From IMG/VR virus record IMGVR_UViG_2534682324_000033: 18,500 nt of DNA; one strand, given 5' to 3'. This document shows positions 7,678-9,499 of the stretch, one piece after another. Source of the DNA: a virus. Taxonomy: Duplodnaviria; Heunggongvirae; Uroviricota; Caudoviricetes. A program made the translations under genes and the position numbers. Within the stretch, counting starts at the first letter, position 1; each line of letters starts with the position of its first letter. The notes under the pieces were generated by a model. That model saw nothing but the letters and a program-made list of their open reading frames with translations. It was not told where the DNA came from and ran no database searches.

Positions 7678-8262
7678 TCATTGGCGCACCTCCTGCGGCG
7701 GTTCTGGTAGCGGCATCCAGTCGGTTACATTGCGGCTCTGTGTTTCGAAAAATTCATCACCATTACGGACTACATCAAAAAACTCACCGTCTCGATATTG
7801 CGCATAAAGAACGAATGCGCCATCACATAAAATAATTACGTGCTGACCATCATCCGGCATTCGCTCACTACAGCTTATCCAATCATCCAGAGTTACCGGA
7901 TAGTTGGTTGACGTTTCCGAGATTTCCCGAAAATTATTGGTTGACGAACCCTTTTTTTCCCGAAAGTTTCCAGCCTGAAGCATGGCGGCGCTGTCTGGCG
8001 GGGCAGCATATAGCGGCACGTATATTTCCGGTTCCTTATCAGCACCGGGTTGCTCTTCCAGTGAGAATGTCTTTCCGGTAAATCGATTCATATAAAGCAC
8101 GGGCTCTGCTTCCAGCGAAGCCTGAGCAACAAGGGCCAGTGCTAAATCCAACTCAATTGCCTCGAGAGAATTTTTGAATGCTGTCTGTTTTACTGCAAAT
8201 TTCATCGCCTTTACATTTTCACTAACATGACTGATTAACTGCTCTTTTGTAAAAGTGGTCAT
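7678..8262 (-). CDS. DUF551-domain prophage protein, about 194 aa
   Basis: C-terminal ...DDWISCSERMPDDGQHVIIL...VTDWMPLPEPPQ is the DUF551 pattern; start set at ATG 8262 with AGGAG 7 nt upstream. Confidence 0.65.
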   Translation of the reverse strand: MTTFTKEQLISHVSENVKAMKFAVKQTAFKNSLEAIELDLALALVAQASLEAEPVLYMNRFTGKTFSLEEQPGADKEPEIYVPLYAAPPDSAAMLQAGNFREKKGSSTNNFREISETSTNYPVTLDDWISCSERMPDDGQHVIILCDGAFVLYAQYRDGEFFDVVRNGDEFFETQSRNVTDWMPLPEPPQEVRQ

Positions 8263-8318
8263 CTCATTCTCCTTTGATGCGAATGCCAGCGACAATTGAA
8301 GCCTGATAGCTAATTCAC

Positions 8319-8714
8319 TCACAGTACCGCCTCCTGAAAATTGCCCTGATAGAACGCCAGTACACGCAGCATAACTTCACTCTTCCGGCACTCGCCACAG
8401 ATTATGTTCTGTTGTCTGTCGTAGCGGCGTATTTCTCCGTCTGGTAACTTTCGAATCAATGTCTGGTCGGTTGCTTTCTCCGCTGCCTTACGCCATACGC
8501 GATACACCTGTTCTGATGTAAAAACACCGTATTTACCGGGCATGTATAAATCGCCACAAGCCAGTACATCCACAAGGCAACGTCTGACTGAATGCCAGCC
8601 TGCTCCCGTCGCTCTCTCCAGTTGTGATATCGTCATGCGTTCATTTTTGCGTACCAGCCCGATAATTCGGGCCTTCAGTTCTTCACGCTGTTCGTGTGTA
8701 AAAGGTTTCGCCAT
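8319..8714 (-). CDS. hypothetical prophage protein, 131 aa
   Basis: ORF with GGAGG Shine-Dalgarno 6 nt upstream of ATG 8714; family not recognised. Confidence 0.55.
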   Translation of the reverse strand: MAKPFTHEQREELKARIIGLVRKNERMTISQLERATGAGWHSVRRCLVDVLACGDLYMPGKYGVFTSEQVYRVWRKAAEKATDQTLIRKLPDGEIRRYDRQQNIICGECRKSEVMLRVLAFYQGNFQEAVL

Positions 8715-8729
8715 AAGCGCCTCCGGCTA

Positions 8730-9398
8730 TCACTTTTCCGATACAACACGGCGGGAAGAATCAGTAATCTGTCGAACAATATCCCGGTGCTTGTTCAGCT
8801 CCCGCAGCGCGGCGCAGACTCGCTCCCACTTCTGAACATCACTTTTCGCCCTGCGCAGCGCCAGGTTTGCCCTGCGCAGGGACGGAAAAATCAGCTCATC
8901 TGCTTGCGTTTCGGTAAACGATGGCAACGGCTGCACAATGTCCGCCACAGTTTCTGTTTTAATTTCTTCCTGTGTTGCGGCTTCCCGGACTGGTAACGCA
9001 GCACCTGCTGGCTGAGGAAAGGCCTTACCATCATTTTTCGTTACCGGCGCGGCTTTCGGATCTGCTGGTAAATTACCCCCCGACATGCAGTAACGAAATT
9101 TACCGTTCTGATTAACGCGTGCCAGCCGCCCCGTTGCGGTTACCACCGCCAGCGTGGAAGCAACCTTGCGAGTACTGACGCCGAACTTACCCGCCAGTTC
9201 CTCACACGTTTTAGCACCATCCTGACCGATAAACTCAACCATCATGTCTGCGGTAACTTTTGGAGCGACCTCTTCGGTTACCACATCCGGCGCTTCAGGT
9301 TGTAGTGCCTGCCCTTCGGTTACCCCGGCTTCACCTTCGACAGCCAGAAACCAGGTGTGACCCGTTTTATCAACAACGCCATTTTTTTGAGTTCCCAC
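8730..9398 (-). CDS. second reading frame of a tandem winged-helix protein (downstream of an A7 run); probably part of one gene with 9320-9499
   Basis: Frame contains ...[53 protein letters not shown]..., a repeat of the N-terminal domain in 9320-9499; no credible independent start or Shine-Dalgarno. Confidence 0.5.
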
Positions 9399-9499
9399 AG
9401 TTCGTTAAGAACTTCTTCACGGCTGATATCAAGCCGCGCCGCCAGTTCAACAGAATTGGCTTTTCCCATCGCTTTCAGTGCATGCAATACAGTTTCCAT
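9320..9499 (-). CDS. N-terminal reading frame of the tandem winged-helix protein (59 aa as written)
   Basis: ATG 9499 with GAGGT Shine-Dalgarno; [39 protein letters not shown] then A7 run (plus-strand T7 at 9382-9388); in-frame continuation is short and unconvincing. Confidence 0.5.

Follow-up and report, generated by a model that had tools for sequence, protein, structure and literature searches.

Three co-oriented genes lie between the replication genes and the hok locus in the stretch of viral DNA analysed here (the window, 18,500 nt; IMG/VR record IMGVR_UViG_2534682324_000033). A first-pass annotation had taken them for a self-contained operon in a variable slot, where prophages often carry superinfection-exclusion or anti-defence cargo. 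We asked to which element these genes belong, whether they are kept together as a unit across prophages, and what they might do.

Identity and layout of the locus

The window matched RefSeq O157:H7 chromosomes with 100% nucleotide identity, and DUF1627, DUF977 and DUF551 are annotated there. A homologue of the third gene is labelled as a CP-933P protein in one source record. The genes that adjoin the locus, annotated in RefSeq as repressor-RelB-ParE and ydaS-ydaT, match the published immunity region of CP-933P, paaR2-paaA2-parE2 with the promoter PR933P (PMC8630535). We are nearly certain that the locus belongs to CP-933P, a cryptic lambdoid prophage of E. coli O157:H7, where it makes up the stretch of the early rightward (PR933P) operon beyond the replication genes, and that it comprises a frameshift-inactivated gene of the ydaW family (gene 1), an intact gene of the Ren family (DUF977/LygF; gene 2) and a mosaic DUF551 gene (gene 3), the first two being a pair tied to the replication module and the third belonging to a variable nin-like region. 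RefSeq, Pfam and PHROGs already list all three genes, which occur in most E. coli genomes; of 5426 complete genomes, 3813 match the region at least in part. Since such genes are common in lambdoid prophages, the finding is largely an ordinary one.

The arrangement described in the first-pass annotation was borne out: three minus-strand genes lie between the helicase-loader gene (10265-9525) and the hok/sok locus, and all features given below are on that strand. Upstream, an O-like initiator gene (HTH_36; 10272-11249), which holds iteron-like 15-nt repeats at 10810-10899, is followed by a DnaC/IstB-like loader gene (9525-10265; PF01695, E 1.5e-19) directly upstream of gene 1. Downstream, a 34-aa hydrophobic ORF (7562-7458; RefSeq CDS WP_001278450.1) begins 115 nt after gene 3, with which it co-occurs in related loci. 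This ORF and the sok antisense RNA (7381-7207) separate gene 3 from hokD (7212-7057), and the hokD-sok segment (7057-7381; Rfam RF01794, 116.9 bits) is the downstream boundary. All three ORFs are genuine genes by their Pfam matches (DUF1627, 332 bits, E 6e-100; DUF977, 243 bits, E 9e-73; DUF551, 73.8 bits, E 2e-20). The reported Shine-Dalgarno sites (GAGG, GGAGG and AAGGAG) and short gaps (25, 15 and 56 nt) are present, and the cluster does occupy a nin-equivalent slot, at the position of lambda ren and the start of the nin region.

The idea of a self-contained operon or moron did not hold. A crude consensus scan, whose counts equal those expected by chance, found no promoter- or terminator-like site on the coding strand from about 11954 to 7507, and the G+C content of the genes (0.45-0.54) is similar to that of the flanking replication genes, so that neither a promoter and terminator of their own nor an atypical base composition sets them apart. 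In our reading, the PR933P early operon simply runs on through the three genes.

Conservation of the gene order

Across related viral contigs, all 73 loci had the DUF977 gene immediately behind the replication module, counting an intervening DUF1627 gene as part of the arrangement. Its immediate upstream neighbour was DUF1627 in 51 loci, a DnaC-like loader in 12, a loader of the lambda P family in seven and an O-like initiator in three; the order P-like, DUF1627, DUF977 was also found. Thus the Ren-like gene always directly follows the initiator and loader genes, whatever the type of loader, as ren follows P in lambda, and the ydaW-like gene, if present, lies between. Enterobacter prophages keep the DUF1627-then-DUF977 order at 28% protein identity; there, no loader gene separates DUF1627 from the O-like gene that precedes it, and a defence-like AAA_15/AAA_21 ATPase gene and a Dam methylase gene adjoin the Ren-like gene downstream. 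The pair accompanies different immunity regions and is also present in the phage genome record Rac-SA53. A pattern scan of the genome collection for DUF1627 returned only five loci, the patterns being too specific.

The third gene behaved differently. Of 76 related loci, only 16 have DUF551 as the next gene after DUF977, and not one of 501 phage records spans at least 80% of the region. As prophages do not keep the trio together, the idea of a three-gene operon fails. The slot is variable as proposed with respect to gene 3; genes 1 and 2 are locked in position, and the constant placement of DUF977 after the replication module makes them a replication-tied pair rather than variable cargo.

These synteny counts largely refute an independent moron operon, in which the three genes would be superinfection-exclusion or anti-defence cargo in a variable slot. 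Gene 3 and the genes beyond it do differ between prophages, the Enterobacter ATPase and methylase genes sit right after the Ren-like gene, and relatives of Ren and YdaW show anti-exclusion phenotypes, all of which a cargo operon would accommodate. Set against this are the position lock of genes 1 and 2, the break-up of the trio, the lack of separate transcription signals and of unusual composition, and a PADLOC search in which no defence system was matched significantly, the only hits being weak winged-helix matches to Csa3/CasR-type HTH domains (E 1e-4 or weaker) and mad1 (E 0.005). We regard this explanation as very improbable.

The frameshift in gene 1

Gene 1 (8730-9499), a member of the ydaW family, had been described as one ORF. 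In the window it consists of two overlapping ORFs in different frames, of 59 and 222 aa, which meet at a run of seven A residues (A7; T7 on the plus strand; 9382-9388), and RefSeq lists it as 'DUF1627 domain-containing protein, frameshifted'. Intact homologues are 253-256 aa long, and no single ORF of about 253-256 aa is present in the window. The N-terminal fragment of 59 aa (9320-9499) holds most of the first winged helix (WH1) and an out-of-frame tail, and its match to phrog_16668 spans 1-59 of 59. The second-frame ORF of 222 aa (8730-9398) encodes the second winged helix (WH2), a linker and the C-terminal helix; on inspection of the sequence no Shine-Dalgarno site precedes its GTG, and an internal ATG pair lies at 9245-9240. 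This second ORF accounts for the PF07789 match (332 bits against a gathering cut-off of 28.1). Gene 1 also matches phrog_630 (E 3.9e-105), of which the 59-aa ORF covers profile positions 1-43.

The run itself varies among homologues. Intact alleles have A8, which was found in 18 loci; A7 was found in three, and the run was interrupted (AAAAGAAAT or A5) in 22. Only the window and those three loci carry A7, and gene 1 is split in the same way in all of them. Matches to E. coli genomes across the run fall into alleles of 100 and 101 nt, and when 30 of the 683 matching genomes were sampled across the set, A7 was present in all strains labelled O157:H7. Programmed frameshifting or slippage at A7 was considered and rejected because the slippery run and the two-frame layout are not kept across diverged homologues: relatives carry A8 or an interrupted run, and A7 is seemingly confined to the O157:H7-type allele.

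This raises the question of whether the genes are an inert remnant, silent and decaying in a repressed cryptic prophage and without any present function in O157:H7. All O157:H7 genomes sampled carry the frameshift in gene 1, further frameshifts occur in relatives (gene 1 in locus L017, gene 2 in locus L011), and the prophage is described as cryptic, with PR933P under repression by PaaR2 (PMC8630535). That gene 1 is broken in the sampled O157:H7 genomes and gene 2 instead in a related strain suggests weak selection in cryptic prophages. Genes 2 and 3, on the other side, are intact and identical or nearly identical in hundreds of genomes, and expression from PR933P is bistable (PMC8630535), so that some cells could express the operon. 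Disuse in O157:H7 is unlikely on balance, though the strongest of the alternatives that we considered; it is compatible with the explanation that we prefer, as it concerns the present use of the genes and not their evolved function.

The winged-helix architecture of gene 1

Gene 1 had been described as carrying two copies of one small winged-helix domain. In an AlphaFold model of an intact homologue with 97% identity (P0002), WH1 spans residues 1-53, WH2 spans 84-138 and a long C-terminal helix spans 206-255; both winged helices have the order helix-strand-helix-helix-strand-strand, with block pLDDT values of 76-89. Foldseek searches with this model returned winged-helix and tandem winged-helix proteins. 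The tandem arrangement therefore stands as a prediction, but WH1 and WH2 have no detectable sequence similarity to each other, so that 'two copies' is true only at the level of the fold. Genes 1 and 2 were also compared as possible paralogues, which we rejected, as they share only a weak, generic winged-helix similarity (hhalign probability 34%; phrog_142, E 4.9e-6 for WH2). A DUF1627-DUF977 fusion protein (P0028) was set aside, being a lone metagenome record with an out-of-frame junction.

Elsewhere the searches gave little specificity. Sequence searches of solved structures returned nothing significant for any of the three proteins, NCBIfam gave no usable match, and fold searches went no further than generic matches of winged-helix or helical-hairpin type. 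The tandem winged-helix proteins among the folds that Foldseek placed closest to gene 1 were ESCRT-II, the SelB C-terminus, ScpB and TFIIIC. The tandem winged helices of these proteins are mostly protein- or RNA-binding scaffolds and not operator-binding regulators. Such neighbours count against the notion that the winged-helix proteins are ordinary transcription regulators, switching phage or host genes through specific operators with no role in defence or replication. The same notion draws on weak matches to the MarR, ArsR, DeoR and HTH_11 families, none of which reaches its curated cut-off, and a repeat search found no operator-like repeats beside the genes. YdaW does appear on a list of E. 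coli transcription factors of unknown function (PMC9308461), and deletion of ydaW lowered early biofilm formation (PMC3105296). Taken together, a purely regulatory function seems improbable to us, somewhat less so than a cargo operon.

Gene 2 and lambda Ren

Gene 2 (8319-8714; WP_001118159.1) is intact and encodes 131 aa. It matches Pfam DUF977 (PF06163) over positions 1-134 of 134, with 243.1 bits against a gathering cut-off of 22.1, and DUF977 has been assigned a winged-helix fold by profile searches (PMC2686095). It also matches phrog_142, 'Ren-like exclusion protein', over positions 1-115 of 116 (E 1.7e-43), a profile that lambda Ren itself matches at 1.6e-41. In pairwise BLASTP, gene 2 and lambda Ren align at E 2e-6 with 29% identity, and they have in common a C-terminal motif, N..ECR.S..M.RVLA.Y, in which N103, E108, C109, R110, S112, M115, R117, V118, L119, A120 and Y122 are invariant in an alignment of gene 2, lambda Ren and two LygF proteins. 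Lambda Ren gives no match to Pfam DUF977 even at E<1. Judged by profile, pairwise alignment and motif, gene 2 is a homologue of lambda Ren; since the two proteins are only 29% identical, its function may have diverged.

The first-pass annotation had recognised none of the three as a characterised lambdoid function and had named ren among those absent. The latter statement has to be withdrawn for gene 2; the former holds in the sense that none of the three has a known biochemical activity. Phage records annotate the gene as LygF or Ren-like (LygF being the name used in GenBank phage records). The PHROG name echoes the Rex-resistance phenotype discussed below.

The modular structure of gene 3

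Gene 3 (7678-8262; WP_000206793.1) had been recognised as a DUF551 gene, and we agree: PF04448 matches its C-terminus at residues 128-190 with 73.8 bits (gathering cut-off 22), and phrog_60 matches as well. W128, P136, W182, P186 and P189 are nearly invariant among 37 diverse homologues. In the AlphaFold model (mean pLDDT 84.8), residues 1-90 form a helical-hairpin/beta module at the N-terminus, about 91-124 a disordered linker with repeats and 125-190 the all-beta C-terminal DUF551 domain, and the homology of gene 3 runs module by module. The linker contains two copies of a 33-nt tandem repeat (7904-7968; peptide NFRExxxxSTN), which lies in a stretch conserved at the DNA level across otherwise unrelated genes. 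A ubiquitin-like (beta-grasp) domain was considered and discarded; the weak PDB sequence match was an artefact of four weak repeat matches summed, with no significant match for any single domain.

The start codon was revised. The GTG at 8322, which would give 214 aa, has a good Shine-Dalgarno site and overlaps the stop of gene 2; natural variation across the two candidate starts is too slight to discriminate between them. RefSeq uses the ATG at 8262 (194 aa), and diverged homologues begin with M-x-T-[IF]-T-K-E-Q-L in alignment with it. The comparison makes the ATG the most likely start, and the GTG probably wrong.

A possible counter-defence role

Counter-defence is the best functional lead for the pair, and an anti-defence role for genes 1 and 2 is a reasonable guess. 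Lambda Ren, as Toothman and Herskowitz reportedly described in 1980, gives resistance to Rex exclusion. By two-hybrid assay, the Rex proteins interact with lambda O and Ren, and ren has been called 'likely involved in DNA replication' (Thomason et al., bioRxiv 10.1101/2021.04.19.439022). In an overexpression screen, ydaW was listed among the prophage genes that blocked the toxicity of RcaT (bioRxiv 10.1101/2020.06.22.160242). The YdaW tested there was the truncated K-12 protein of 186 aa with its unrelated tail. It is because Ren protects against Rex exclusion and interacts with the Rex proteins, and because overexpressed Rac YdaW neutralised the retron-Sen2 toxin RcaT, that we favour counter-defence. 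The ydaW-like and Ren-like proteins would be produced early, alongside the replication proteins, and would stop the phage's own replication from triggering abortive-infection systems. They might do so by winged-helix binding of replicating DNA or of its initiation complex, or alternatively by binding defence proteins directly. In the O157:H7 genome, at most the Ren-like half of the pair could be active, because the ydaW-like gene there cannot yield a full protein. The C-terminal beta-domain of DUF551 is most likely a common docking module to which swappable N-terminal modules would be attached. We give this explanation as a whole a probability of roughly 0.45; its mechanism is more tentative still. 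If it is correct, the pair would offer a simple handle on how temperate phages avoid abortive infection set off by their own replication.

The placement of the pair also invites a reading in which the ydaW-like and Ren-like proteins are replication accessory factors. They would act at the phage's origin or upon its initiator/loader complex, influencing for instance the timing, stability or direction of replication, and any exclusion effects would be secondary. Strict placement after the initiator and loader genes in all 73 loci, the Enterobacter arrangement with DUF1627 immediately after the O-like gene, the iteron-like repeats of the adjoining O-like gene as a possible binding target, and the interaction of Rex with O and Ren would all fit. 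Yet lambda forms plaques without ren and the nin genes, a classical result that has been restated (PMC10695390), and Ren is needed neither for P-lethality nor for replicative killing (PMC3640518). Furthermore, gene 1 is frequently lost or broken, and the association of the pair with three different loader situations speaks against any one loader being its partner. We consider an accessory function in replication doubtful, slightly more so than disuse of the genes in O157:H7.

A more elaborate form of counter-defence would make the ydaW-like and Ren-like proteins a two-part module hard-wired to lambdoid replication modules, by which the intermediates of phage replication would be hidden from sensors of abortive infection. 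Such sensors would include Rex, retron toxin-antitoxin systems or a prophage's own repressor-linked toxin, for instance ParE2. We think this unlikely, and less plausible than an accessory function in replication. Were it true, the riddle of Ren, open since 1980, would be answered across thousands of enterobacterial prophages, and the DUF551 domain would serve swappable early effectors as a common docking module.

The practical value of the analysis is a correction: Pfam DUF977 is the lambda Ren family, on which Pfam and NCBI product names are silent. It also shows that the tie of the Ren-like gene to the replication module holds with any type of loader, and that ydaW is its frequent partner.

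Comparison with known systems

The DUF551 domain of gene 3 is shared, at the C-terminus, with YfdS of prophage CPS-53 and with variant V2 of Ea22 of Stx phages (PMC4776307, PMC10834534), and over this part of gene 3 the DNA is 93.5% identical to the 3' ends of ead/Ea22-like genes in Stx2 phages. The N-terminal modules of YfdS and Ea22 V2 are unlike that of gene 3, and the activities of these proteins are not transferable to it: when overexpressed, yfdQ-yfdR inhibits oriC initiation only together with one of two alternative genes, YfdS being one, and Ea22 favours lysogeny.

For gene 1, the closest known counterpart is YdaW of the K-12 Rac prophage (b1361), which is 57% identical over residues 1-154 (WH1, linker and WH2) and is encoded in the same place, directly after the DnaC-like gene ydaV. 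The two copies are damaged differently. In K-12, the Rac deletion truncates YdaW after residue 151, and the protein continues into an unrelated tail to a total of 186 aa, whereas the window copy breaks at residue 39 through a one-base deletion. The full-length form of 256 aa has a long C-terminal helix that K-12 YdaW lacks. An identification of K-12 YdaW as a DUF977 protein is wrong; it is a DUF1627 homologue with no similarity to gene 2.

LygF, known from the Sdf/Sdr I region of Salmonella Enteritidis and from Rac-like phages, is of one family with gene 2, though LygF is a mere name given by GenBank depositors, with no function attached. The comparison with lambda Ren is more informative. The N-terminal regions of the two proteins align, and both give weak matches to MarR/Crp-type HTH profiles; lambda Ren has 96 aa, against 131 aa for gene 2, in which about 35 additional residues are inserted after the N-terminal region, ahead of the C-terminal motif. 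Here the ydaW-like gene separates the Ren-like gene from the loader gene, and the loader is DnaC/IstB-like, unlike lambda P. Both genes nevertheless have the same place in the early rightward operon, next to the replication genes on their downstream side; the order in lambda is O-P-ren.

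Gene 2 encodes a member of the Ren family

The three genes all lie on the minus strand, and their coding regions are supported by Pfam matches to DUF1627 (gene 1, 8730-9499; 332 bits), DUF977 (gene 2, 8319-8714; 243 bits) and DUF551 (gene 3, 7678-8262; 73.8 bits). Ribosome-binding motifs are present and the gaps are short (25, 15 and 56 nt), as the first-pass annotation had described. These Pfam families are known, and the products of gene 2 (WP_001118159.1) and gene 3 (WP_000206793.1) are already catalogued, the former as Ren-like in PHROGs. The earlier statement that none of the three is ren is thus contradicted: the 131-aa gene 2 product matches PHROG 142, "Ren-like exclusion protein", with E 1.7e-43, and lambda Ren matches it with E 1.6e-41. 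Direct BLASTP of the gene 2 protein against lambda Ren gives E 2e-6, and the C-terminal motif N..ECR.S..M.RVLA.Y is invariant in an alignment of these two proteins with two LygF proteins. Lambda Ren reached no match with the Pfam DUF977 model, which is why the Ren link is absent from Pfam-based names. Homologues in GenBank phage records are called lygF or "Ren-like exclusion protein"; the lygF name stems from a Salmonella Enteritidis difference region and has no function tied to it. A winged-helix fold was earlier assigned to the DUF977 N-terminus via profile searches (PMC2686095).

Genes 1 and 2 accompany the replication module as a conserved pair

A crude consensus scan of the coding strand from ~11954 to 7507, with counts equal to chance expectation, found no promoter- or terminator-like sites, and in G+C content genes 1-3 resemble the replication genes. 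On both counts they read as a continuation of one long early operon and not as the separate operon in a variable moron slot that had been proposed. Synteny was examined in 80 viral contigs with DUF977 relatives (52-100% identity), 73 of which had enough upstream sequence. In all 73 a Ren-like gene follows the replication module, whatever the loader; in the window this module is an O-like initiator (10272-11249) and a DnaC/IstB-like loader (9525-10265). The direct upstream neighbour of the DUF977 gene is DUF1627 in 51 contigs and a DnaC-like loader in 12; another 3 have the O-like initiator there. The remaining 7 have a lambda-P-family loader (PF06992), which itself comes after a DnaT-domain initiator. 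An arrangement of P-like, then DUF1627, then DUF977 exists too. The immunity regions accompanying the pair vary (RacR/YdaS/YdaT type or cI/Cro/CII type), the phage genome record Rac-SA53 contains it, and in Enterobacter prophages a DUF1627 gene whose product is only 28% identical still has the O-like gene before it and a truncated DUF977 gene behind it. Only 16 of 76 loci, by comparison, have the DUF551 gene directly 3' of DUF977, and of 501 phage records none reaches 80% coverage of the three-gene region. The conserved pair that stays with the replication module thus consists of genes 1 and 2, and only gene 3 belongs to a variable region. The same synteny also supports a direct accessory role of the pair in replication, the main rival to the counter-defence reading discussed below, and one that we consider less likely.

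In four Enterobacter contigs (L092, 5599-9014; also L093, L094 and L096) the DUF977 gene that follows DUF1627 is cut to 61 aa, with a Zn-ribbon-like ORF of ~90 aa between the two. Next to the shortened DUF977 gene come genes for an AAA_15/AAA_21 ATPase (580 aa) and a Dam-type methylase, an arrangement that resembles a defence-type insertion immediately behind the Ren-like gene.

Many RefSeq E. coli O157:H7 chromosomes carry the ~2.2 kb around the three genes with 100% identity. In strain TR01 (NZ_CP033605) the annotated order is a ydaS-like regulator, YdaT, an HTH initiator, an ATP-binding (DnaC/IstB-like) protein, DUF1627 (frameshifted), a DUF977 family protein, a DUF551 domain-containing protein, a small hypothetical protein and hokD, with a repressor-RelB-ParE trio on the opposite side of the switch region. 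The published cryptic prophage CP-933P and its PR933P promoter fit this layout (PMC8630535), and one gene 3 homologue bears the record name "unknown protein encoded by cryptic prophage CP-933P". The window and TR01 differ by 3 nt in length within or near the O-like gene, so that annotated positions upstream of 10265 are offset by 3; the exonuclease gene, interrupted by IS1203 in TR01, is a single 823-aa ORF in the window (14922-17393). The O-like gene contains 5-6 iteron-like 15-nt repeats of the TCAAC.GTTGA.GGG type (10810-10899), overlapping a 33-nt imperfect inverted repeat; the prophage origin is probably located at these repeats, as it is within lambda O.

Gene 1 is a frameshifted ydaW homologue

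Gene 1, previously taken as one ORF, consists of two overlapping ORFs in different frames on the minus strand, one of 59 aa (9499-9320) and one of 222 aa (9398-8730), that meet at an A7 run (9382-9388). The break lies within the first winged-helix domain, and inspection found no Shine-Dalgarno sequence before the GTG start of the 222-aa ORF. Intact homologues are 253-256 aa long and read ...ELKKNG... across the break site. Of the complete E. coli genomes in a spread sample, every O157:H7-labelled strain has the exact 100-nt A7 form; in strains without this label the same span is 101 nt and the 771-nt gene is intact. The A7 run arose by slippage in a fragile homopolymer and became fixed in a single lineage. 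A programmed frameshift was rejected, as the fetched loci carry A8 (18) or an interrupted run (22), and A7 in only 3. The interrupted form in other allele groups is AAAAGAAAT.

Phage databases keep separate families for 59-aa and 160-aa fragments (phrog_16668 and phrog_11856), probably because of this fragile run. Other lesions were seen: strain NMBU-W12E19 shows reciprocal decay, with DUF1627 intact and DUF977 frameshifted (L011, 4227-4623), and contig L017 (3214-3982) has a different DUF1627 frameshift, near residue 141. Two single records may be assembly or sequencing artefacts: homologue P0005, with a ~30-aa internal duplication in the second winged helix, and metagenome protein P0028, in which DUF1627 reads through into DUF977.

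K-12 Rac YdaW, encoded in the same place after the DnaC-like ydaV, is 57% identical to an intact gene 1 homologue over residues 1-154. In the AlphaFold model of a 97%-identical intact protein, winged helices occupy residues 1-53 and 84-138 with a disordered linker between them; a further disordered stretch leads to a long helix at 206-255. The tandem winged-helix description thus stands for the family; the two domains have no recognisable sequence similarity to each other and are copies of one domain only at the level of fold. Foldseek matched winged-helix proteins only, including ESCRT-II, the SelB C-terminus, ScpB and TFIIIC, all of which are tandem winged-helix scaffolds.

Gene 3 is a mosaic of modules

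Gene 3 probably starts at ATG 8262 (194 aa), the start in RefSeq, with which the N-termini of diverged homologues agree; the GTG at 8322 used in the first-pass annotation is a possible alternative, with a good Shine-Dalgarno sequence and an overlap with the gene 2 stop. Its AlphaFold model is confident (mean pLDDT 84.8): residues 1-90 form a helical hairpin with a few strands, ~98-123 are a disordered linker, and 125-190 fold into an all-beta domain of five strands that corresponds to DUF551; the model has no significant match among solved structures. Of the 1664 relatives found in a search of 1.8 billion cluster representatives, most have just the C-terminal domain in common with gene 3, in every case at the C-terminus of a protein of 80-400 aa, and others only the N-module or only the linker. 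Four DNA patches (nt 1-29, 123-165, 272-433 and 542-585) recur at 80-100% identity in genes that are otherwise unrelated; these patches look like recombination joints for module shuffling. Between such genes the disordered linker (7873-7992, with a 33-nt tandem repeat at 7904-7968) is better conserved than the folded domains. The C-terminal domain shares 93.5% DNA identity with the 3' end of Stx2-phage ead/Ea22-like genes. The known DUF551 proteins are YfdS (CPS-53) and one Ea22 variant (PMC4776307, PMC10834534); YfdS has an oxidative-stress phenotype and, when overexpressed, aids yfdQ-yfdR in inhibiting oriC initiation. These phenotypes do not define an activity for the gene 3 protein.

hokD (7057-7212, minus strand) lies downstream as described earlier but is not the direct neighbour, since the sok antisense RNA (7207-7381, minus strand) and a 34-aa hydrophobic ORF intervene. 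The latter (MSDDISLAMEGALAVIAVVGVYCLVVFLMDRLGN; 7562-7458, minus strand; RefSeq hypothetical WP_001278450.1), 115 nt 3' of the DUF551 gene, travels with it in about two dozen related viral contigs (92-100% identity); it has no PHROG match and could encode a small membrane peptide or toxin. sok scored above the Rfam gathering score, as did STnc100 sRNA (3099-3271, minus), DicF RNA (14227-14278, plus) and three tRNA genes (4045-4291, minus).

A possible counter-defence role for the pair

In classical genetics, lambda ren mutants are excluded by Rex, which the name of PHROG 142 reflects. By two-hybrid assay, O and Ren interact with Rex proteins, and ren was called "likely involved in DNA replication" (bioRxiv 10.1101/2021.04.19.439022). 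ren is dispensable for P-lethality and replicative killing (PMC3640518) and for plaque formation (PMC10695390), and when prophage genes were screened by overexpression, ydaW was among those blocking the retron-Sen2 toxin RcaT (bioRxiv 10.1101/2020.06.22.160242). For the pair itself, the analysis shows to which families the proteins belong, how they are built and where the genes lie. From the phenotypes of relatives we suggest, with a probability of about 0.35-0.4, that the pair may act as an early counter-defence, which would prevent abortive-infection systems from being triggered by the phage's own replication. It might do so by binding replicating DNA or the initiation complex, or by binding defence proteins directly. 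The earlier anti-defence guess was reasonable for genes 1 and 2; in this genome, at most the Ren-like half can be functional.

The finding is an ordinary one. Its modest point is that in thousands of prophages the Ren family, often together with ydaW, has a fixed place at lambdoid replication modules, and that both have relatives showing anti-abortive-infection phenotypes. A paaR2-paaA2-parE2 trio, named by literature comparison, adjoins the prophage repressor (12079-12942, plus strand), and its position raises the idea that the Ren-like protein might be connected with this repressor-linked toxin system. In lambda, ren follows P exactly as the DUF977 gene follows the replication module, and rexA-rexB occupy the position held here by the toxin-antitoxin trio.
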